From IMG/VR virus record IMGVR_UViG_3300000096_000017: a stretch of 8,463 nt of DNA; one strand, 5' to 3'. The stretch is from a virus. Lineage: Duplodnaviria; Heunggongvirae; Uroviricota; Caudoviricetes. Shown piece by piece: positions 1 to 8,374 of the stretch. How positions within the stretch are numbered: position 1 is the first letter of the stretch; every line of letters starts with the position of its first letter. The notes beneath the pieces were generated by a model that saw only the letters and a program-made list of their open reading frames with translations, ran no database searches and was not told the origin of the DNA. The translations under genes and the position numbers were made by a program.

Positions 1-9
1 TTCCCCTGA

Positions 10-1716
10 TTACTCAGAGTCACCGGCATCAATCGTGTCGCCGCTTATAAAGTTAAGCCCGCCTTTTTTGGCCATTGTCAGCGTTACACGAGTGAAGTAA
101 TCAGCGCCGTTGCGTGGGTGCATATCGTTGATAGCCGAACCCCACAGCGTGGTACGGTTGACCAGCGCCGGAGTGGTCGGATGCTGGAACGGGATGGCCG
201 GGACAGCATCACCAGTCACGAAGCCTGCTTTACCCGGATTTTCATCACGGACGTAGCACAGCACATCCATCGAGCTGAACTGAATGTTCTCTGTCGTTAA
301 GTTCTTACAAATACCAGCAGGTACTTCGTACACTTTCACGTTACCGAACAGGGTACCGATGTAGTGAACATACGGAGTCTGGATATAGTCTTCGGCTGAC
401 TGGAAGAAATCCTTCGGCAACTGTTTGAAGAAAGATGCTGCATCAGCACCAGCAAACATCCCCATCGCACCAGAAGATTTAACGCGCTCAATAATGTCGC
501 GATATACAGTCTGGAATTTGCCACGAATGATGGTTGCCCATACATCAAAGGACTGGTTAACCGGCAGAGCGATGTCAAAGGTGTCGGTCGCAAGAGTACG
601 CCAGATCATGATGCGAAGACGCAGCATATCCTGTTCATGAGACAGGTATTCCTTCAGGGTGCGGAACTGTAGGGAACCCAGGTCCAGACCAAATTCACGC
701 TGTGCTTCATACGCCGCCTGTACCGTGTGCTCAGCCGCGATAACGAACTGACTTGGGAACAGGGTGTATTTCTTCATTTCGTGGTTGATCAGCGGGATCA
801 GCTCAGGAGCGGCTTCAATATTGATTTCCGTCTCAATTGCGATCTCAGTGCCTTTATCCGGCGCTTTGGAGAACGACAGGGCAATCTGACCAATGTTGTA
901 GTTCAGAGAGCAGGTAACAGTGATTTGCTCACCAGCAGCATTAGTAAACGAGTGAAGTAGGCTGCCGGAACCGTTATCAACAACAGACTTAATACGGTTA
1001 ACGTAGATGTTAGTGCGACCTTTTCGGATTGGTACATTCTGGCCTTCGAAGTCTTCCATCTTGAAGGTTGCGGTTTTGCTGGTGCCATCGGAGCTTGCCA
1101 CCAGCACATAGCGGCGACGTAACTGGCTGTACACACCGACGGATTGCATGTCCAGAACATCACCAGCAGCATAAGAACCAAAAGATGAACCTGCCACGTT
1201 AAAGACTTCATAGATGTCGGACTGGTCACGCGTAACCGGAATGAAGGTACACGCATCAGCGGTAGCTGCCCCCAACTGAACAGGCAGGATCATCGCGAGG
1301 AATAAAGGCAGACGCATAACACCGTCAGAAACGCTCATCATCTCTGCTGCGACGGATTCCAGCATCGCTTTATTAGTGGCATCCATGCTATTGCGGGTGG
1401 ACTCAATCAGGCAGTTTTCCAGCGTCTGGTGGCAGGAGGCCAGAATTTCCGGACGCGGCATAGATTTATGTGCTGCGGCGTAGTCAGCCAGTGCACTTGC
1501 CCACGCTGTAGCGATTTGAGCGGTGGCATTATCAGAGATACCCGCAAAAACCGGGTCTTTACGTGCAGCTTCAAGGATAGATGCGGCACGCGCGGCATCA
1601 TCTTTAATGAATTGGTTATCAGTACCGAACTGCGCAGTGCTTGCCCAGCCAAGCACAGCTTTAGAGCGTTTTGCGATATCTGCAATACGATTCTGGTATT
1701 CGCGTAAGTTACTCAA
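10..1716 (-). CDS. Large structural protein, probably major head (capsid) protein precursor, analogous by position to P1 gene 23
   Basis: Single long minus-strand ORF (track 10..1737, 575 aa) with no in-frame ATG in its first ~90 codons. The track start at 1737 is TTG with no ribosome-binding site; a second in-frame TTG at 1716 follows AGGAAG by 6 nt, so 1716 is the likelier start. Ala-rich N-terminal region resembles a cleavable scaffold-like domain. Product call rests on size, position next to parS as I recall for P1, and the palindromic promoter upstream; no catalytic motif was recognised. Confidence 0.5.
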   Translation of the reverse strand: MSNLREYQNRIADIAKRSKAVLGWASTAQFGTDNQFIKDDAARAASILEAARKDPVFAGISDNATAQIATAWASALADYAAAHKSMPRPEILASCHQTLENCLIESTRNSMDATNKAMLESVAAEMMSVSDGVMRLPLFLAMILPVQLGAATADACTFIPVTRDQSDIYEVFNVAGSSFGSYAAGDVLDMQSVGVYSQLRRRYVLVASSDGTSKTATFKMEDFEGQNVPIRKGRTNIYVNRIKSVVDNGSGSLLHSFTNAAGEQITVTCSLNYNIGQIALSFSKAPDKGTEIAIETEINIEAAPELIPLINHEMKKYTLFPSQFVIAAEHTVQAAYEAQREFGLDLGSLQFRTLKEYLSHEQDMLRLRIMIWRTLATDTFDIALPVNQSFDVWATIIRGKFQTVYRDIIERVKSSGAMGMFAGADAASFFKQLPKDFFQSAEDYIQTPYVHYIGTLFGNVKVYEVPAGICKNLTTENIQFSSMDVLCYVRDENPGKAGFVTGDAVPAIPFQHPTTPALVNRTTLWGSAINDMHPRNGADYFTRVTLTMAKKGGLNFISGDTIDAGDSE

Positions 1717-1768
1717 TTTACTCTTCCTTAAACACAAGGCACTTGTGTGAATCCCTTTTCGGAAGAGA

Positions 1769-1796
1769 TTTTATTGAAAGTCACTTGTTGACTTTC
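1769..1796 (-). promoter_or_regulatory. Candidate late-type promoter for the structural gene: 8-bp inverted repeat plus -10 hexamer
   Basis: Perfect inverted repeat GAAAGTCA (1776-1783) / TGACTTTC (1789-1796) with a 5-bp spacer. On the minus strand a TAAAAT hexamer (plus 1769-1774) lies about 14 bp downstream of the palindrome centre, roughly 25-45 nt upstream of the candidate start codons. P1 late promoters are described as a -10 element plus an upstream inverted repeat bound by the late activator; the exact consensus is not recalled. Confidence 0.35.
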
Positions 1797-1853
1797 TCGT
1801 GACAAGCAATTTTTTTATTTTTTTCGGGAGTAGGGGAGGAAGGTAAAATCCAA

Positions 1854-1940
1854 GGTGAAATCGTGGCGATTTCACCTTGAAATTTTAGAGGGATTTACTT
1901 TAAAAACAGTAGGTTAATAGTGAAATTTGAATGGCGAAAG
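1854..1940 (-). other. parS: parS partition site (centromere) of the P1 type
   Basis: Begins immediately after the parB stop codon. Read on the minus strand it contains the P1 parS motif layout: box B TCGCCA (plus 1932-1937), box A ATTTCAC (1920-1926), an AT-rich ~35-bp spacer where IHF binds in P1, then ATTTCAA (1877-1883), GTGAAAT (1869-1875), box B TCGCCA (1864-1869) and box A ATTTCAC (1855-1861). Confidence 0.85.
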
Positions 1941-1941
1941 T

Positions 1942-2943
1942 TTAAGGCTTCGGCTTTTTATCGAGGCTCTTTCTAAGGATATGCCCAATCATCCTGTCGA
2001 GTTCTTCCTGTAGCTCTTTTGAAAGTCGATTAAACTCATAAGAAAATGCACGGCCTTTCACGCGCTTCCTTGCAAAGCGATCCTTGTCCTCAAATTTCCA
2101 TAATTCAGTAACTACGGACTTATCTTTAGAACCTTTATCCGTGAGTAGTGAGGCTTCCTTTGTTATCAAGCGCAGGATTTTATTTTTAACTTCATCTTCG
2201 GCCATTTCTTCAATGGATAAGATGTCGTTTATTTCCGGGGATATGTTTTGAATAAGCTGATCAAACTCTAAATTCTTGTTCCCCATTTCGTCGCCAACAG
2301 CACAAAGCGTTTTGTAGTCCGAAAAGGTTAATTCCGACTGCACAGGGAAAAGGGCGACTAATTCTTCCGGAGCACTCGCTGCCTGGAGAGCACGCGTGAC
2401 CTTCGCCTGAGACAGCCCTTCTTTGGCTGCAATATCCTTCTGACTCATCCCATCATTTTTCATTCGCATCAAACGCAGACCTATTTCTCGAATGCTGTGC
2501 TGCAATGCTGTCTGAACGTCTTTCGCTAAATTTTGCGCTTCCTGAACGCTGATCTCCTGGTCCGTGACTAAAACCCGCAACCCTACGTTCTCTAAGATGG
2601 CAGAAGCTCGACGCCGGGAACCATCCAAAATTTCAATTTTCCCTGTAGCCCGTCTAACACCTATTGCAGGGTAAAATTGCTGATGCTTAATAGTGCTTCG
2701 GATACTTTTTAATGATTTTGGCGTAAGAGATGCCTGGTCACGCCCGTTGTTATGCTGATCAACAAAGGTATCGCTTTCTACCTGGTTCGGAGGTATTACC
2801 TCTTCAATAAATGTGGCCTGGCGACCAGTTGATAACTTGAATACCTGCTCGACTCGATCGCCAGAGGCTGAAGAACTATCAAATCCGCTTAATATTGAAG
2901 GATTAAGGGTTCGCCCAATTGTTGGTCTGTTTTTCTTTGACAT
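1942..2943 (-). CDS. parB: ParB centromere-binding partition protein, 333 aa
   Basis: ATG start at 2943, TAA stop at 1942-1944; lies 16 nt downstream of parA with GGAG immediately after the parA stop. Length, position directly upstream of parS, and the translation (MSKKNRPTIGRTLNPS...) match what I recall of P1 ParB. Confidence 0.95.
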   Translation of the reverse strand: MSKKNRPTIGRTLNPSILSGFDSSSASGDRVEQVFKLSTGRQATFIEEVIPPNQVESDTFVDQHNNGRDQASLTPKSLKSIRSTIKHQQFYPAIGVRRATGKIEILDGSRRRASAILENVGLRVLVTDQEISVQEAQNLAKDVQTALQHSIREIGLRLMRMKNDGMSQKDIAAKEGLSQAKVTRALQAASAPEELVALFPVQSELTFSDYKTLCAVGDEMGNKNLEFDQLIQNISPEINDILSIEEMAEDEVKNKILRLITKEASLLTDKGSKDKSVVTELWKFEDKDRFARKRVKGRAFSYEFNRLSKELQEELDRMIGHILRKSLDKKPKP

Positions 2944-2959
2944 GGGGGTTTCTTACTCC

Positions 2960-4156
2960 TCAGTTAGATCTGATAAATTCAATACGGTCAAAAACTGCTT
3001 TAGCAAAATCTTCCGCAGCAATTCGCGCGTTCTTCAATGCATCAGCACTACCAACATACGTTGCCGGGTTAGCTGAAATAACAGTGTCAAAAGACTCGCC
3101 GCAGCGTTCAAAACCGTCAAGGCGAGGGAGGACAACATCAAGCATATCCCCACCGAACACTTCTTTAGCCAGGCTATGGCAATACTTATGGTCTGCCTTG
3201 TTACTCAACTTGGACATAAAACCAATGTTAGTTGCAAGCTGACACTCGCAGCCTTCATCCGAAATGAGTTTCACCAACTCAGGAAGGCGGGCAACGTATT
3301 TAAGCGATGAGTGGAAATCAACCGTTGCAGGCGGCAGAGGTGTAAACAGTATATTGGCCGAGGCCAAAGCATTTTTCAGGAAGGCGTCAAGGTGAGGACC
3401 ACTATCAACGAGGATAAAGTCATAATCGCTCTTCAGCTTATCAATCACATTTTCTTTCAGGACTGCATGGATGTTCTGACCCGGTAGATGCTCATTGCAC
3501 AGCTCTCTCCAATCGGATGCAATAAAGGCATCGTCAATCGACGCAGGCATAACGTCAACCCCAGGTACAACAGAAGGAACAATAAACTCCTCTAACAGCT
3601 CTTCACGGCTTACATTCTGCAACATAGCCTGTGCAGATGTTGCGTTTACGATACCAATAGAGTGTTTATGGCTTAAAAACATCGTTGCTGAAGATTGCGG
3701 ATCAAGGTCAATAACCAGAATCCTTAAATCTTCCATCAGAAGATGAGGATGAGCACGCATTGCATGCGCCAGAGAAACCGTCGATACAGTTTTTGACACA
3801 CCGCCTTTAAGATTGGAGATGAAAATCACATACGCTTCGCTGTAGCGATCCCGGTATTTTGGCACTCCGCGATGTTCATATATGTCAATGATGTTCTGAA
3901 TTGACATCGCATATTTCATTGAAGAGCCAGCAGGGCGTTTATCGAAAACATAACCCTTTTCTTCCATTTCACTTACGGCATAGTCAACGTTCGCACGAGT
4001 CAGTAGAGGCAATTTTGCCAGTGCCGCTTTCGCATAGACCTGGTAAAACTCGTTCGCGTGTAGCTCATCCTTTTGCAACTGTACTTGTTCAGTCAGAACA
4101 TTGAGCATTCTATTTGCTCTTTGAGCAACCTTGTGAAGCTGGCTGGAATCACTCAT
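2960..4156 (-). CDS. parA: ParA partition ATPase, 398 aa, type Ia with N-terminal DNA-binding extension
   Basis: ATG at 4156 preceded by AGGA at 9-nt spacing. Deviant Walker A motif KGGVSKT within NLKGGVSKTVST, and a ~100-aa N-terminal extension typical of autoregulatory type Ia ParA. Translation (MSDSSQLHKVAQRANRML...) matches my recollection of P1 ParA. Confidence 0.95.
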   Translation of the reverse strand: MSDSSQLHKVAQRANRMLNVLTEQVQLQKDELHANEFYQVYAKAALAKLPLLTRANVDYAVSEMEEKGYVFDKRPAGSSMKYAMSIQNIIDIYEHRGVPKYRDRYSEAYVIFISNLKGGVSKTVSTVSLAHAMRAHPHLLMEDLRILVIDLDPQSSATMFLSHKHSIGIVNATSAQAMLQNVSREELLEEFIVPSVVPGVDVMPASIDDAFIASDWRELCNEHLPGQNIHAVLKENVIDKLKSDYDFILVDSGPHLDAFLKNALASANILFTPLPPATVDFHSSLKYVARLPELVKLISDEGCECQLATNIGFMSKLSNKADHKYCHSLAKEVFGGDMLDVVLPRLDGFERCGESFDTVISANPATYVGSADALKNARIAAEDFAKAVFDRIEFIRSN

Positions 4157-4169
4157 CGAAAGTCATCCT

Positions 4170-4209
4170 TTATGCTGTATTTTTGAATTTAATTAAAAAT
4201 GCTGCATAA
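4170..4209 (-). promoter_or_regulatory. par operator/promoter region (imperfect 40-bp inverted repeat)
   Basis: TTATGCTGTATTTTTGAATT (4170-4189) is a near inverse complement of AATTAAAAATGCTGCATAA (4191-4209), with 2 mismatches and 1 indel, in an AT-rich stretch 14-53 bp upstream of the parA ATG. In P1, ParA binds a large imperfect palindrome overlapping the par promoter. Confidence 0.55.
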
Positions 4210-4296
4210 AATAATAATGTATGCGTAGATGCTTGTACATAGCATTCTCTGCATGTTTGGTTCATTTTGCACGATTGAGAGTTACAAGGAGGGCAC

Positions 4297-4317
4297 AAAA
4301 AAGCCCCGTTCAGGGGC
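4297..4317 (-). terminator. Rho-independent terminator after the 269-aa gene
   Basis: Stem GCCCC (4303-4307), loop GTTCA, stem GGGGC (4313-4317), starting 8 nt past the stop codon at 4325-4327. On the minus strand the hairpin is followed by a TTTTTT run (plus A-run 4297-4302). Confidence 0.6.
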
Positions 4318-4324
4318 ATCAGTG

Positions 4325-5134
4325 TTATTTGCTAAGAGCAGCGAATAATCGTTCGAAATCGATAGTATCTATAGCACGCGTAAGCGCCGGAAGTTCAGCC
4401 TCAAAGTACCCGTGTCGATCGTAAAAGAAGGGACCGAAGAGCGAGGCATGTTGGATTCTACTTCGCCCCAGCCCGGACACACAGTTAAGCCCATTACCGG
4501 CTAAAAGGCTAAAAAACTTCTCTGGATTATCGTGGTAAAGCTGGGAATCAATGGTGGCGGTTAACTCTTCCATAGGGAAGCACACCCGCCCTGTATCCCA
4601 GGGATATTTAGTCCGAAGCATAAACATTGCTTTCAGCAATTCACATTGAGCGCGGATCGCGTCCGGTTCATAGCCAGATATGGAGACATAAGCCACGTCC
4701 CTCATTCCTGCGTCATCTTTGAAAGTCACGATAGAAGTAACATCCAGCTCTTTTTCGAAAGAGCAAGCAGCATCTACTGGACGCTGAAGTAAATCATTCG
4801 ACTTAATGCGCTCGAGAATCCCTCCCCACATATCATTTAGATATTCGATATGAGCCAAAACCTTATCAAGACACTCTCGTGTAAACCATTCAGTATGCCC
4901 GCCACCGGCGCTTTTCTCCCACGGCGCATTCCAGGGGAAAAAGGTTGCGTGTAAAGCCCGCTCAAGATTAACCATTGCCAAACGCGTACCACGATAGACC
5001 CGTGAAAGCGCAAAATCGGGACTCACTTGTAGCCCTTTAAACCGTGCCAATGGACCACATGAAATGCCGATTTTAAAAGTATCTCCGTTCTCTGGCACCA
5101 GAACGTAGAGGTAGTGTTGTTTCTCTTCTTGCAT
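4325..5134 (-). CDS. Standalone 269-aa protein with GIY-YIG-like (T5orf172/MUG113-type) N-terminal domain and uncharacterised C-terminal domain
   Basis: ATG at 5134, TAA at 4325-4327, own terminator downstream. Residues 8-25 YLYVLVPENGDTFKIGIS fit the GIY-x(9-11)-YIG spacing, followed by a conserved-position Arg (GPLAR), LERALHATF and GGGHTEWF, matching the pattern I recall for T5orf172-type domains. The C-terminal ~170 aa have no motif I recognise. Weak ribosome-binding site. Confidence 0.75.
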   Translation of the reverse strand: MQEEKQHYLYVLVPENGDTFKIGISCGPLARFKGLQVSPDFALSRVYRGTRLAMVNLERALHATFFPWNAPWEKSAGGGHTEWFTRECLDKVLAHIEYLNDMWGGILERIKSNDLLQRPVDAACSFEKELDVTSIVTFKDDAGMRDVAYVSISGYEPDAIRAQCELLKAMFMLRTKYPWDTGRVCFPMEELTATIDSQLYHDNPEKFFSLLAGNGLNCVSGLGRSRIQHASLFGPFFYDRHGYFEAELPALTRAIDTIDFERLFAALSK

Positions 5135-5167
5135 ATCAATACCACTGCTTGATGAGAACCGCGCAAA

Positions 5168-5425
5168 TGTTGACTATGCGCGAAGGTTAATGTGAATAGT
5201 TGACTATGCGCGATGTGACTACAGTCAAAAGTTGACTGTAGTCGATTTAACTCCACCAAAGATCGACTATGTAAGATATTGTCGGGAGAAACGTTGACTA
5301 TACGCGATGAAATGCCCCTAAAAGCCATCTCAATAGCGACTTGCAGAATATTGACGCCAGCAAAAATCCACCAGCGTCAACGAATGTCGCCTATAGTCAA
5401 CTTCTCGCTATCGCATATAGTCAAT
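5168..5425. repeat. incA-like iteron array downstream of repA, about 9-10 copies in both orientations
   Basis: Core AGTCAA/TTGACT with flanks matching the origin iterons. Reverse-orientation copies at 5168-5183, 5198-5214, 5231-5243, 5293-5308 (perfect reverse complement of an origin iteron) and degenerate 5263-5275, 5348-5360. Forward copies at 5217-5228, 5388-5401, 5410-5425 and degenerate 5372-5385. Confidence 0.8.
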
Positions 5426-5426
5426 A

Positions 5427-6311
5427 TTATGGATTGCGCTTATGGATCTGGAAGCCGATTTTCCTGCCGTTTTTTATCTCTGAAAATTTAAGATATTCAA
5501 TAGCTTCCAAATCTTTCATGGCTTTTCTGATAACGCTATTTTGCACGCTAACGGATGATTTGAGATTAAGCCTCGCTCTAAGGCGCTCAATGCTGACAGG
5601 TGCCGGGTTGGCGGGTAGAGCCTCAAAGAATGTATACAGTACCTTGGCCGTCTCTTTGCGCCCTAGTTTATCCAGCATCTTCAGCTTCAGGATTCGCTTA
5701 TAGTCAACATAGTAAAGTTCAGATAGCTGTTTCTGCGGCTGGATCTCGATAACATCAAGCTCGGTATTCAGGCTGCTATATGCCAACAAGTTGACGTTAA
5801 TGTTATTGAGATGACCTTTTGCCGCCGGGAAGCGGAATTTGACAACTGTCTGCTGAATGCGTGTCAGAGAGTCATCAATACTTTTACGGAACGCCTTTGA
5901 AAGGCGCTTACGTGGATAGCCGCATCGATCGGCAAACTCGGAGAATGGCAGGGTGATTATGCCGTCATCATCAGGTGCGTAGTCAAACAACGCGGAGGTT
6001 ATGCCCACCCACACCTTAAAATCAGTATCCATATCCAGGCGTGGACCATGAATTTCAATTCCCTCATAGCCTTCCTGCTCAACAATTTTGAGGCTTGATA
6101 GTTCTTCAGTTGCGTTCGTTGTGTTTGTTGTAACTGACGATCCGCGACGTAGCGCCACATTGGTAGATTTTAAGGTTGGCACAAACACACCTAAGCGCAA
6201 CAAAGCGATGGGTTGTATAGTGCTGTTGTTATTGGGCTTCAGGCTGTGGATTTCTCCTGTATTTCCTGCAACTTCTTCAACGCTAAGGAAGCCTTTACTT
6301 TCTTCCGGCAT
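5427..6311 (-). CDS. repA: Iteron-binding replication initiator RepA, P1 RepA family
   Basis: Track ORF 5427..6347 starts at TTG; an in-frame ATG at 6311 is preceded by GGAG at 8-nt spacing (GTG at 6314 also possible), giving ~294 aa. Motif-by-motif similarity to P1 RepA as I recall it (QPIALLRLGVFVP, GPRLDMDTDFKVW, YTFFEALPANPAPVSIERLRARL, C-terminal HKRNP) but clearly diverged. Flanked on both sides by iterons. Confidence 0.9.
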   Translation of the reverse strand: MPEESKGFLSVEEVAGNTGEIHSLKPNNNSTIQPIALLRLGVFVPTLKSTNVALRRGSSVTTNTTNATEELSSLKIVEQEGYEGIEIHGPRLDMDTDFKVWVGITSALFDYAPDDDGIITLPFSEFADRCGYPRKRLSKAFRKSIDDSLTRIQQTVVKFRFPAAKGHLNNINVNLLAYSSLNTELDVIEIQPQKQLSELYYVDYKRILKLKMLDKLGRKETAKVLYTFFEALPANPAPVSIERLRARLNLKSSVSVQNSVIRKAMKDLEAIEYLKFSEIKNGRKIGFQIHKRNP

Positions 6312-6359
6312 CACGGTTTCTCCATGTGTGGCGCGGCCTGACGTCAATTTGGATGGCTG

Positions 6360-6603
6360 TTATCAACAGCTGTGAATATTCAGACTCTAAAATCGCTTAC
6401 AGTCAATGTTTCTGTCGCGTATAGTCAACAATAAATCGCGTGCAGTCAACAATAAATCGTGCACAGTCAACATAAAATCGCGTATAGTCAATGTTGATCC
6501 CATTTCAGGCCAGTAATGACGCGGCTTACAGCGATCCGGGATCTTCTTTGGATCTTCCTAGGTTCTCTTTAGGATCTGTTTATTGGATCTATGCTGTGGA
6601 TAA
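6360..6603. other. Vegetative plasmid origin (oriR-like): DnaA boxes, GATC cluster and iterons
   Basis: Perfect DnaA box TGTGGATAA at 6595-6603; six GATC sites at 6496, 6533, 6540, 6551, 6573 and 6586, several in a GGATCT context; the five iterons; and an 8/9 DnaA-like box TTATCAACA at 6360-6368 between iterons and repA. Same module order as P1 oriR. Confidence 0.7.
6392..6493. repeat. Origin iterons: five direct repeats of ~17-19 bp at 21-bp spacing
   Basis: Copies at 6392-6408, 6415-6430, 6435-6451, 6456-6472 and 6477-6493, consensus approximately ATCGCGTRYAGTCAAYR, all in the same orientation. AGTCAA cores start at 6401, 6423, 6444, 6465 and 6486. Confidence 0.85.
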
Positions 6604-6611
6604 GTTGAATA

Positions 6612-6632
6612 AACCGGCCAACAAAGCCGGTT
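6612..6632 (-). terminator. Possible intrinsic terminator for the upstream minus-strand operon
   Basis: Stem AACCGGC (6612-6618), 7-nt loop, stem GCCGGTT (6626-6632), 15 bp downstream of the 130-aa gene stop. On the minus strand it is followed by a T-rich but interrupted tract (TATTCAACTTAT), so it is weak. Confidence 0.35.
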
Positions 6633-6646
6633 GGAAGGAAGTCATA

Positions 6647-7039
6647 TTATTCTACGCTTTCGATAAGAAGACCATGTTCATAACATTTAAGCTCATCGCC
6701 TTCATACAGGAATTGGTATCCAACACCACCATCTTCATGGACATTAGGGAATAACTCATAACTCACTGAAGAGCAAATCACACCAATGCAGCGATCAACT
6801 CCTTCTCGTTCTTCAGTGCTGAAAAAATCCTCTTCGGTAAGAACATGAGTACATTGCTCATCAGCATAGGTCGGAAATACATGCTCGATACAATCCGGAT
6901 GTTTTAAACCAAGTTGATCGGCAAGTTCGAAAGCATGACGGTATTGTTCAGATCCTGGCTTGCCAACAGTGATGTGCTCAATTTTGTAGATTGAAGTCGC
7001 TTTGTTGATAGTTTGCTTAACTGTTACTTTATCAGACAA
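6647..7039 (-). CDS. Hypothetical acidic Cys-containing protein, 130 aa
   Basis: ORF with TTG start at 7039 (no in-frame ATG or GTG anywhere), preceded by AAGGG and beginning 10 nt after the lipoprotein gene stop (TAA 7049-7051), suggesting translational coupling. No motif recognised. Confidence 0.6.
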   Translation of the reverse strand: MSDKVTVKQTINKATSIYKIEHITVGKPGSEQYRHAFELADQLGLKHPDCIEHVFPTYADEQCTHVLTEEDFFSTEEREGVDRCIGVICSSVSYELFPNVHEDGGVGYQFLYEGDELKCYEHGLLIESVE

Positions 7040-7048
7040 AAATCCCTT

Positions 7049-7381
7049 TTAGTTACCGCTGATAGCGCGGTTGTAATCATTAACGTTGCGATTCTTCCTG
7101 TTAATCCCCATCAGCATCGTTTCTGTATCGAGGATATACGCTGGCAGATCATCAAAATATTCACTGCTAAACTCCGGCATCCTGCACATAAATGCACTTT
7201 TGGGGTCAGAGTGCTTAACCTTTGTCGGCGTCGGCGTTAAATTCGCTGATCGACTCCCGGAGCAACCGCTGAGTGTCAGCAGGAATACGCTGGCGAACAT
7301 TACCCGCCGCAACCAGTTGTTTCTGAACTTCAGCTTTTCGTTCCATTTGCCTGTCAGCATACTTGGCTTGTTCTGATTCAT
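7049..7381 (-). CDS. Outer-membrane lipoprotein, 110-aa precursor; candidate o-spanin
   Basis: ATG at 7381 preceded by AGGAAG at 6-nt spacing. Basic N-region, hydrophobic stretch VMFASVFLLTL, lipobox LSGC with Ser at +2 (outer-membrane sorting rule), then a Pro/Thr-rich mature region (TPTPT) with one further Cys. Overlaps the 3' end of the preceding gene in a different frame (7215-7381). Alternative internal ATGs at 7360 and 7300. Confidence 0.7.
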   Translation of the reverse strand: MNQNKPSMLTGKWNEKLKFRNNWLRRVMFASVFLLTLSGCSGSRSANLTPTPTKVKHSDPKSAFMCRMPEFSSEYFDDLPAYILDTETMLMGINRKNRNVNDYNRAISGN

Positions 7382-7637
7382 TTTTCACTTCCTGGCTGTG
7401 AAAATGTTGCTCTGCTTTGTTCATCGTCTCAATGGTCTGGTTAAGATCCATTATTGACTTATCACGTTCCTTAACAGCCTGATCAAGACTGCCAATTTTC
7501 TCCATGGCTTGCTTTAGCAGATGACGTTCCCATGCAAACCCAGCACCAACAAGTGCGCAAATCAGAACAAGAACACCAGTAGCAGCAAGTTTCTCCTTCA
7601 AAGACAAAGCTGTTTTTAACGTAGAAAAGAATGACAT
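7215..7637 (-). CDS. Membrane protein with N-terminal transmembrane segment and coiled-coil-like domain, 140 aa; candidate i-spanin
   Basis: Track ORF starts at TTG 7664, but an in-frame ATG at 7637 is preceded by AGGAGG at 5-nt spacing. One hydrophobic segment (ATGVLVLICALVGAGFAW) followed by a K/E/Q-rich helical region. Its last 167 nt overlap the lipoprotein gene. Confidence 0.7.
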   Translation of the reverse strand: MSFFSTLKTALSLKEKLAATGVLVLICALVGAGFAWERHLLKQAMEKIGSLDQAVKERDKSIMDLNQTIETMNKAEQHFHSQEVKNESEQAKYADRQMERKAEVQKQLVAAGNVRQRIPADTQRLLRESISEFNADADKG

Positions 7638-7676
7638 GTCTTCCTCCTGAAGAAAAATTATCAATGAAGTCCTTTG

Positions 7677-8339
7677 TTACCGTGCCGCTTTGTTTAATTC
7701 ATCAAGAACAGAATCAGGAACCAAAGCGGCGACTGCGCTGGCTGTACTGGCCTTATTTGCTGATGCTTCCGCAAGCGCGGTACCGATAGCATGGTTATAA
7801 GCAGTTATGGCTACGTTGGCGCTTTCCTTCACCCGTTCATACTGCTGTTGCAATGCAACTGTGGGCGCTGTTGTCTGGTTGAAAACAACCCCAAACTGTT
7901 CAGTTGCTACTTTCAGAGATTCAATTTGCTCTTCTGTTAGTGCTGGTGGGGGAGTGGCAGTGCCACCGCCAGAACCAGAGCCTGACGAGCTTCCTGAGCC
8001 AGTGTTAAGGGTCTGGTTAATCTCCCCCATAGCAGCGACTAAACTTGATGTATTAAGCGCGTTTACAGCGTCCTCAAGCGATTTAGTAATAGTCACATCA
8101 CCAATGGCAATAGAGATCGGCAGTTCTGATACTTCTCGCTCATTAGCATGGCAGTAAACATCCCAACCAATATCGAGTTGAAGCAGCATTGACAGATCTG
8201 CATAACCAGCCAACAGGTCCGCGTGCTTAGTTGCCAGTTCTACAATGTTCGTTAAGCCGGTTGTGGTTGTTCTGATCGTTGAAACATAGCTGGTAATAGT
8301 GTCGGGATAGACAATTGTATCCAGAATTAATCCGGTCAA
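7677..8339 (-). CDS. Hypothetical two-domain protein with Gly/Ser-rich linker, 220 aa from the track start
   Basis: Open frame ending at TAA 7677-7679, 39 nt upstream of the next gene. Start is uncertain: the frame is open from 8447, the first start-like codon is TTG at 8339 with no ribosome-binding site, and the first ATG is codon 51. Central linker NTGSGSSSGSGSGGGTATPPP. Confidence 0.6.
   Translation of the reverse strand: MTGLILDTIVYPDTITSYVSTIRTTTTGLTNIVELATKHADLLAGYADLSMLLQLDIGWDVYCHANEREVSELPISIAIGDVTITKSLEDAVNALNTSSLVAAMGEINQTLNTGSGSSSGSGSGGGTATPPPALTEEQIESLKVATEQFGVVFNQTTAPTVALQQQYERVKESANVAITAYNHAIGTALAEASANKASTASAVAALVPDSVLDELNKAAR
7807..8157 (+). other. Plus-strand 116-aa ORF antisense to the 220-aa gene, probably non-coding shadow ORF
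   Basis: Lies entirely inside the minus-strand 220-aa ORF; its translation is low-complexity (the antisense of the Gly/Ser linker reads as PPPEPEPDELPEP). Listed only for completeness. Confidence 0.1.
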
Positions 8340-8374
8340 TTCTTCTGCAAGCAGTTTTGGGTGATGCTGCCAAC

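Follow-up and report, generated by a model that had tools for sequence, protein, structure and literature searches.

The 8,463-nucleotide (nt) stretch of viral DNA analysed here (the window; IMG/VR record IMGVR_UViG_3300000096_000017, Caudoviricetes) comes from a P1-like element and raises the question why a gene for a protein of 269 amino acids (aa), ORF269, stands between the replication initiator gene repA and the partition gene parA, where phage P1 has no gene, and what this protein may do there. A first-pass annotation, made from the letters alone, had located the open reading frame (ORF) at 4325-5134 on the minus strand, where the ORF list indeed has it, and had regarded the gene as wedged into the P1 replicon, between the copy-control iterons of the incA locus and the par operon. 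P1 does lack the gene, but the whole segment 4259-6508 differs from P1, and the gene sits inside it. Origin iterons, repA, downstream iterons and ORF269 together are the known p0111/RepFIB-like cassette, which stands in place of P1's cassette of incompatibility group Y (IncY), and the gene is a constant part of it. Judged by its motifs, the N-terminal domain of ORF269 is a T5orf172 endonuclease domain with an intact catalytic motif. By analogy with T5orf172 homing endonucleases and with the nuclease Odn of phage ICP1, we tentatively read the protein as a replicon-linked selfish or competitive endonuclease, which we regard as a serious possibility though not as a probable one. The cassette and its surroundings are arranged as follows.

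4211-4239, minus strand: Ppar, promoter of the P1 partition operon (promoter scan; P1 Ppar coordinates transferred via the blastn alignment)
4259-6508 (2250 bp): swapped replicon cassette, replacing 1491 bp of P1 (NC_005856 61316-62806; blastn)
4293-4317, minus strand: intrinsic terminator of ORF269, stem at 4303-4317 and T-run at 4293-4302 (terminator scan)
4325-5134, minus strand: ORF269, two-domain protein, 269 aa plus stop codon, ATG start (ORF list)
5170-5424: iteron array downstream of repA, corresponding in function to incA (repeat finder and pattern search)
5170-5183, 5200-5213, 5232-5245 and 5294-5307: four inverted iterons of the downstream array
5387-5400 and 5411-5424: two direct iterons of the downstream array
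5427-6311, minus strand: repA, Rep_3-type initiator (p0111/RepFIB-like), 294 aa from ATG 6311
6393-6491: five origin iterons with 21-bp spacing (repeat finder and pattern search)
6496-6589: cluster of six GATC sites (pattern search)
6595-6603: DnaA box TGTGGATAA (pattern search)

Window 1-4258 is 99.3% identical to P1 (NC_005856), and 6509-8359 is 93% identical (blastn). P1 homology on the par side thus begins at 4258, with the breakpoint ~20 bp upstream of the -35 box of Ppar, and on the oriR side the breakpoint lies at 6508/6509, where the origin iterons give way to the GATC/DnaA-box half of oriR. Between these two points, the P1 counterpart is limited to a 59-nt patch inside repA, and as the cassette has no DNA match to P1 61316-62806, the replicon is not the canonical IncY replicon of P1. 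With 98.2-100% identity over 2250 bp to the phages RCS47, SJ46, JL22 and phi456 and to ~390 plasmids in PLSDB, the segment is identified as the p0111 cassette, named here as in PMC9603915; PlasmidFinder labels this replicon p0111, GenBank records label it RepFIB or RepB-family, and the initiator is named 'RepFIB replication protein A' or 'RepB family initiator' in these records. The replacement has been noted before by the authors who described JL22, in which repA' (p0111) and an unknown gene, 'gp57', replace repA (IncY) (PMC9603915). Because the cassette is bounded by two conserved flanks, it can be viewed as a specificity module that is exchanged through these flanks, with ORF269 inside the module. 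The upfA-upfB flank has 93% identity to P1 and the par-gp23 flank 99.3%, and with this unequal divergence the backbone around the cassette is itself mosaic.

The initiator and its binding sites fit this assignment. The RepA of the window is only 42% identical to that of P1 and matches Pfam Rep3_C above the cutoff and Rep3_N just under it. Its iterons are of the TTGACTATACGCGA type of p0111/RepFIB-type replicons, as opposed to P1's ATGTGTGCTGGAGGGAAA, and 19-bp incC/incA iterons of P1 are not present, so that the earlier equation of the downstream array with P1 incA had to be abandoned. The GATC cluster and the DnaA box are the P1-homologous part of oriR, except for the first GATC (6496), which lies just inside the swapped cassette. 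In P1 itself, the interval between incA and Ppar consists of 171-213 bp of unrelated non-coding DNA. Neither an orthologue nor a remnant of the gene was detected in this spacer, where tblastn with ORF269 and its three full-length relatives (see below) gave noise only, which bears out the statement of the first-pass annotation that P1 has no gene at this place. The spacer is even shorter in IncY elements with a P7-type par operon, and the gene is likewise absent there; since P1 and P7-type IncY elements lack it, the gene is dispensable for the P1 life cycle.

Word-indexed searches returned only 5-7 proteins, and among 5.8 billion proteins they gave only near-identical copies and one 44%-identical protein; an exhaustive HMMER search of 1.84 billion cluster representatives, with 154 matches at E <=0.001, was needed to reveal domain relatives. 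Only three of these matches are full-length relatives, P0004 (44% identity), P0009 (27%) and P0011 (25%), while the remaining ones are restricted to the first ~100 residues. A chance ORF is out of the question, as the protein has counterparts with 25-44% identity in three other elements and is matched end to end by PHROG 2876, which covers its full length (E 1.6e-194). The protein can be divided into three parts.

4823-5134, minus strand: T5orf172/GIY-YIG-superfamily nuclease domain, aa 1-104
4754-4822, minus strand: low-confidence inter-domain linker, aa 105-127, with a predicted local distance difference test score (pLDDT) of <50 at residues 115-127
4328-4753, minus strand: C-terminal domain, aa 128-269, acidic and fast-evolving, with a predicted alpha/beta winged-helix-like fold

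The N-terminal domain matches T5orf172 (PF10544) at aa 8-85 with an E-value of 4.7e-6 and 27.5 bits, above the curated cutoff of 20. The GIY-YIG-like pattern that had been proposed for the N-terminus as T5orf172/MUG113-type is therewith narrowed down to T5orf172, as MUG113 remains below its cutoff (15.3 vs 22.3). When 145 relatives of the nuclease domain are aligned, 141 of which also match PF10544, the residues Y10, K21-I22-G23, R31, E58, H62 and E82 either do not vary or show at least 93% conservation, the motif G79-x-T81-E82-W83-F84 is invariant or nearly so, and ORF269 has all of these residues. In the predicted structure, the domain shows the alpha/beta fold of GIY-YIG proteins, and the full-length model matches GIY-YIG and mitoribosomal structures. 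In Odn, a T5orf172 nuclease fused to the DNA-binding domain of an initiator that cuts the origin of a rival at its iterons, the glutamate equivalent to that of the ORF269 motif is catalytic (PMC8263062). Among the four homologues, i.e. ORF269 and its three full-length relatives, the N-terminal domain is 35-63% identical.

The C-terminal domain is far more variable, with only 15-34% identity among the four homologues; between the window and L003, one of the elements that carry a full-length relative, the identity is 34% for the C-terminal domain as compared with 63% for the N-terminal domain, 84% for RepA and 89% for ParA. The first-pass annotation had found this part of the protein unrecognised, and so it stayed: the last ~165 aa have no match in Pfam, NCBIfam, PADLOC or PDB sequences, Pfam gave no match with the C-terminal domains of all four homologues at E up to 10, and the best result of a PDB sequence profile search was a single chance-level match (E 0.27). 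The top matches of its predicted structure are the winged-helix 1 (WH1) domains of Rep_3 initiators, with 93-105 residues aligned, and the list is led by the WH1 domain of MSBI1.176 Rep (6h24; score 5.8, 105 residues aligned), followed by RepE (2z9o; 4.8), the WH1 domain of pPS10 RepA (1hkq; 4.4) and RctB (5ubf; 4.3). With the full-length model, RepE and RctB come next after the GIY-YIG and mitoribosomal matches of the N-terminal domain. From these models, a winged-helix-like fold of the C-terminal domain is probable, and a likeness to Rep WH1 is plausible. A recent capture of a RepA domain in the manner of Odn was also considered and was rejected at the sequence level, as hhalign, Pfam and the PDB profile search were all without signal; a hmmsearch of the 145 relatives with a RepA profile gave no match.

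The three full-length relatives are all encoded on P1-like elements, whose par and capsid DNA is only ~72% identical to that of the window, and all are found in the same slot between repA and parA, in the order upfB, ppfA, (upfA), repA, iterons, gene, parA, parB, gp23. The corresponding genes outside the cassette in the window are the following.

10-1737, minus strand: gp23, major capsid gene (Pfam and P1 annotation)
1942-2943, minus strand: parB (Pfam and P1 annotation)
2960-4156, minus strand: parA (Pfam and P1 annotation)
beyond the origin iterons, minus strand: upfA, mlp, ppfA and upfB (Pfam and P1 annotation)

The full-length relatives span three iteron types. The window and L003 have RepA proteins that are 84% identical and share the same iteron type; L004 has a RepA that is 83% identical to that of P1 and combines P1-type iterons with the gene, which is absent from P1; and L006, with a RepA that is 43-48% identical to any other, has a third iteron type. 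L003 and L004 share their backbone (ParA 100%, gp23 99%), in which an independent swap has replaced the origin iterons, repA, the downstream iterons and the gene together, with breakpoints that are equivalent to those between the window and P1. In two backbones that are ~72% identical to each other, the cassette has thus been exchanged whole and at the same breakpoints, and the ORF269 gene lies within 70-90 bp of one of these breakpoints. The same slot and the joint swaps together indicate that the gene is an old resident of this slot, which moved with the initiator and was lost or never gained in the IncY lineage of Escherichia coli.

A second line of evidence connects the nuclease domain with initiators. 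Rep3_N (4/145, best E 8e-14) and Rep3_C (2/145) are the only additional Pfam domains that recur in this set of relatives, and one further member has KfrA_N. The metagenomic contig L008 (344-2086, plus strand) encodes a 580-aa fusion of T5orf172, Rep3_N and Rep3_C, the Rep part of which is 42% identical to the free-standing Rep_3 initiator of L010. In L010, an unrelated element, a Rep_3 gene is followed by a gene for a 271-aa T5orf172 protein with an overlap of 11 nt (4821-6813, plus strand), which is the gene order of the window. A scan of the genome contigs with the Rep3-fusion group gave no match. The link between T5orf172 and Rep_3 is thus recurrent but not universal. Other relatives have other surroundings. 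In a metagenome-assembled genome of Dyella (L013:4066-6921, plus strand), a T5orf172 relative directly follows the gene of a 608-aa AAA_15/AAA_21 ATPase, a pair that resembles Septu-type ATPase-nuclease pairs with T5orf172 replacing HNH. In Xanthomonas, relatives of ~310 aa (L012:5968-6906 and L014:5980-6909) lie inside a phage-tail or tailocin gene cluster, flanked by a gene of unknown function on one side and by Baseplate_J and tail-collar genes on the other, a position that is typical of free-standing homing endonucleases. Yet another T5orf172 relative sits near an integrase.

Concerning expression, the terminator that had been assigned to the gene was recovered by the terminator scan on the correct strand. 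It begins 8 nt past the stop codon, reads GCCCC-TGAAC-GGGGC followed by TTTTTTGTGC on the minus strand, and ends up ~54 nt upstream of the -35 box of Ppar; the homologue in L006 is likewise trailed by a hairpin and a T-run. The region upstream of the gene is the iteron array, as had been stated, the nearest iteron ending 35 nt before the ATG. Between repA and ORF269 (minus strand, 5135-5426), the scan predicted neither a terminator nor a sigma-70-like promoter, and the gene is therefore probably transcribed by read-through from the repA promoter. The possibility of a sigma-70 promoter of its own was dropped, as no candidate upstream of the ATG passed the minus-strand scan.

The distribution of the gene follows that of the cassette. 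It was found in 401 PLSDB records, as compared with 404 records for the cassette (repA), and 412 of 5426 complete E. coli genomes have it, nearly always on a plasmid of ~90-130 kb. The same holds for this repA, which at the megablast level is almost exclusively found in ~90-130 kb plasmids of E. coli, Salmonella and Shigella. We also considered that the gene might be general baggage of RepFIB replicons, but at the megablast level this repA was always accompanied by the gene, and a separate, gene-less population of it was not found. Near-identical versions of ORF269 are encoded by RCS47 (FDJ53_gp090), SJ46, JL22 ('gp57') and phi456, and in these phages and in pO111_2, the p0111 prototype, the gene is 98.9-99.9% identical at the nucleotide level, again lies between repA (p0111) and parA, and has no structural difference. 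Some records list it as hypothetical, others as 'GIY-YIG nuclease family protein', and that of phi456 (OR339795.1) mis-annotates it as 'terminase small subunit'. In PLSDB, the typing by MOB-suite assigns replicon IncHI1B to pO111_2 (NC_013370.1), which is a misfit with the P1-like content of this plasmid. No functional study of the gene was found in the literature searched.

The alleles of the gene tell of a protein that can be lost. From the window to RCS47, ORF269 has 5 nonsynonymous and 5 synonymous codon changes, whereas repA has 0 nonsynonymous and 9 synonymous ones; 4 of the 5 nonsynonymous changes are in the linker or the C-terminal domain, and three of them cluster at aa 178-182. Even sampling of 60 E. 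coli copies gave about 9 that are disrupted, and ~85% of the sampled copies are intact. In pO111_2 and a group of plasmids of Shiga toxin-producing E. coli (STEC) that are ~99.3% identical, codon 112 in the linker (window 4799-4801) is changed from TCG to TAG, and this nonsense mutation splits the gene into an ORF for the nuclease only and an ORF for the C-terminal domain (L007:3040-3375 and 2566-2937). One sampled copy has an insertion of IS1, and frameshifted protein variants exist in databases. The gene can thus be regarded as dispensable yet mostly intact, and the conservation of the nuclease motif speaks for long-term purifying selection.

How could such a nuclease serve a replicon? We propose that the C-terminal domain would give the specificity, either by docking on an initiator-iteron complex via a contact of WH1 to WH1 or by directly binding DNA; given its acidity, the complex rather than the bare DNA may be recognized. 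The N-terminal domain would then cut the DNA of related plasmids that carry a different replicon, and the rival plasmid would be destroyed or repaired from the nuclease-bearing copy, both of which would favour the cassette that encodes the nuclease, with the linked cognate replicon as the immune allele. Read-through from the autoregulated repA promoter across the iterons would couple the dose of ORF269 to the occupancy by RepA, and recombination in the DnaA-box/GATC half of oriR and in Ppar would let the cassette replace the IncY cassette of P1. The initiator-like fold that is predicted for the tail hints at such a role in competition between plasmids. A close precedent is Odn (Gp88) of ICP1, together with odn-like genes of coliphages (PMC8263062, PMC10448857): like ORF269, these proteins have T5orf172 with the same catalytic Glu, they join it to an initiator-related module, as is predicted for ORF269, and like ORF269 they are linked to iteron-type replicons and the exchange of replicon modules. 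The differences are considerable, however. The DNA-binding domain of Odn is a RepA_N domain that is 42% identical to the RepA of its target and precedes the nuclease, whereas the extra domain of ORF269 is C-terminal, acidic and without sequence similarity to any Rep, its likeness to Rep_3 WH1 being one of predicted fold only. Moreover, Odn is carried by a lytic phage against a satellite, whereas ORF269 is encoded inside a plasmid replicon beside its own initiator, and its cleavage activity is a proposal. In comparison with the Rep_3 initiators that gave the best structural matches (pPS10 RepA, mini-F RepE and MSBI1.176 Rep), ORF269 has one winged-helix-like domain instead of WH1 plus WH2, it is acidic instead of basic there, and it does not match Pfam Rep3_N.

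The other precedent is given by the T5orf172 nucleases that act as free-standing homing endonucleases and whose genes mark the boundaries of exchanged DNA (PMC10448857). Like T4 Seg, I-TevI and the homing endonucleases of ICP1, ORF269 is encoded by a small intergenic gene with its own terminator, it consists of a nuclease and a variable second domain, it is located at the edge of an exchanged segment, and it is absent from close relatives (P1) and occasionally inactivated. Unlike ORF269, most described T5orf172 homing endonucleases have basic Zn-finger repeats for DNA binding (CapR/DUF723/DUF4397), and homing by ORF269 is putative. Presence/absence polymorphism is not seen within one cassette type; the window and P1 share flanks with 99.3% identity on the par side and 93% on the oriR side and differ in the presence of the gene, but the whole replicon differs as well.

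Several observations weigh against a competitive endonuclease. Within the p0111 cassette, the gene is present in 401/404 PLSDB records; a chimera of the gene with an IncY repA was not found in E. coli, where IncY cassettes never carry the gene; and without such polymorphism or chimera there is no footprint of a recent independent homing. The breakpoints coincide with the only conserved flanks, so that plain homologous recombination explains the swap without any nuclease, and the conserved position may be no more than a consequence of the synteny that P1-like genomes show in general. For ORF269, a target site cannot be named. The C-terminal domain is acidic in 4/4 homologues (isoelectric point (pI) 4.6-5.2, as compared with 9.3 for RepA), whereas those relatives that have a recognised DNA-binding domain are basic; direct sequence-specific binding to DNA is thereby made less likely. 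Finally, the fold evidence for an initiator-like C-terminal domain is weak: Foldseek against the PDB gave nothing significant for this domain, although the match with the highest probability was again 6h24, and hhalign of its profile with five P1-like RepAs (probability 0.2%) and with Rep3_N-bearing relatives (0.5%) gave nothing.

What else could the gene be for? P1-like phage-plasmids are known carriers of accessory cargo (PMC9603915), and a nuclease that is released once its C-terminal domain senses a protein or structure of an invader would act in anti-phage defence or abortive infection, with the proximity to repA being incidental. An acidic and fast-diverging C-terminal domain, as it is often seen in the sensors of arms races, would suit such an effector, as would the dispensability of the gene, its occasional inactivation (~9/60 sampled copies) and the defence-like pairing of the Dyella relative with an AAA_15 ATPase. 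Yet the models of PADLOC-DB 2.0 recognised 0 families at E up to 1, so that the defence gene that the first-pass annotation had listed among its options found no support there; the gene stands alone and has no partner in the window, the four divergent homologues all lie in one and the same replicon slot and not in the known variable cargo regions, and the structural resemblance as well as the fusions in relatives point to replication initiators and not to known sensors. We thus consider a defence function unlikely. Alternatively, the protein might be an accessory factor of the replicon, whose WH1-like domain would pair with the cognate RepA, in the way in which WH1 domains of Rep_3 proteins dimerise, or with iteron complexes to modulate copy number, to resolve handcuffed plasmid pairs or to process replication intermediates, the nuclease being a nickase or domesticated. 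The gene always follows a Rep_3 initiator and its control iterons immediately, in the same orientation and probably co-transcribed, the unrelated L010 has the same gene order, an acidic domain suits a protein-protein contact with the basic RepA (pI 9.3), and domesticated regulatory proteins of the T5orf172 family exist, such as CapR of PLE (PMC8096241, PMC10448857). However, P1 and P7-type IncY replicons function without the gene, the IncY-like RepA of L004, although 83% identical to that of P1, is accompanied by it while P1 RepA is not, and a whole STEC lineage keeps its plasmid with the nonsense allele. Moreover, the C-terminal domain does not co-vary with RepA and iterons, as the window and L003 share their iterons and 84% of RepA but only 34% of this domain. 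An accessory role therefore appears improbable to us.

One may also regard the gene as a relic, a former homing endonuclease gene that is kept only by its tight linkage to repA, and the nonsense, frameshift and IS1-disrupted alleles, the raised nonsynonymous fraction relative to repA and the dispensability in P1 would agree with that. But ~85% of the sampled copies are intact, and a catalytic motif that is fully conserved across homologues with 25-44% overall identity requires long-term purifying selection on the nuclease domain, which makes mere hitch-hiking very unlikely. A replicon-linked selfish or competitive endonuclease thus remains the reading that we tentatively adopt. It can be taken further, to a class of initiator-mimicking nucleases built into plasmid replicons, comprising ORF269 and its three relatives, in which the WH1-like domain would dock on the Rep-iteron complex or the iterons of a rival and T5orf172 would cut, as a protein-based incompatibility weapon or a gene-conversion drive of the p0111 cassette against other P1-like replicons. 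In this specific form, the idea is speculative and rather unlikely to hold in full. If it were true, it would help to explain the exchange of replicon cassettes in the form of sealed units and the fact that p0111 has become as common as IncY. Further members of the class would be the fusions of T5orf172 with Rep_3 and the rep-adjacent genes in unrelated elements, and the principle of Odn would extend from phage-satellite to plasmid-plasmid conflict.

Some further observations concern the replicon and its joints. The mechanical ORF of repA starts at TTG 6347 (5427-6347, 306 aa), whereas annotated orthologues start at ATG 6311 (294 aa), a start that keeps the promoter-proximal iterons outside the coding region. 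An iteron-like TCGCTTATAGTCAA, identical to the origin iteron core in 13/14 positions, lies within the repA coding region at 5694-5707. Just after the two direct iterons past the repA stop, there is an imperfect inverted repeat, TTGACGC...GCGTCAA (5350-5379, minus strand), which is partly conserved in L003 and was not called a terminator, as no T-run follows. In the P1-like IncY plasmids L017 and L018 of E. coli, whose par operon is P7-type (ParA 401 aa, ParB 321 aa), P1 homology ends exactly at the first incA iteron, and the par promoter is found within ~115 bp after this point. The junction of incA and par is thus a joint at which both par and rep cassettes recombine.

The gene, its position and the replacement of IncY by p0111 are already known, from databases and from one paper that has it as an unknown gene. 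Three aspects were not described in the literature searched and appear new, namely the conserved slot that a small gene family occupies in divergent P1-like replicons, among them an IncY-like one, the C-terminal domain with its predicted likeness to initiator WH1, and the recurrence of T5orf172 nucleases that are fused to Rep_3 initiators or directly follow them. Even if the gene were only a defence gene or a relic, its annotation is corrected, as it does not encode a terminase, and the element is recognised as having a p0111 replicon instead of a P1 replicon into which a gene was inserted. P1-like phage-plasmids often carry extended-spectrum beta-lactamase (ESBL) and other resistance genes, and roughly half of those in complete E. 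coli genomes use the p0111 cassette. If the nuclease acts on rival replicons, it would be a previously unrecognised determinant of the coexistence or displacement of phage-plasmids and a second, independent case of the Odn principle, inside a plasmid replicon, and the old question why the replication modules of related plasmids swap as discrete cassettes would become testable.

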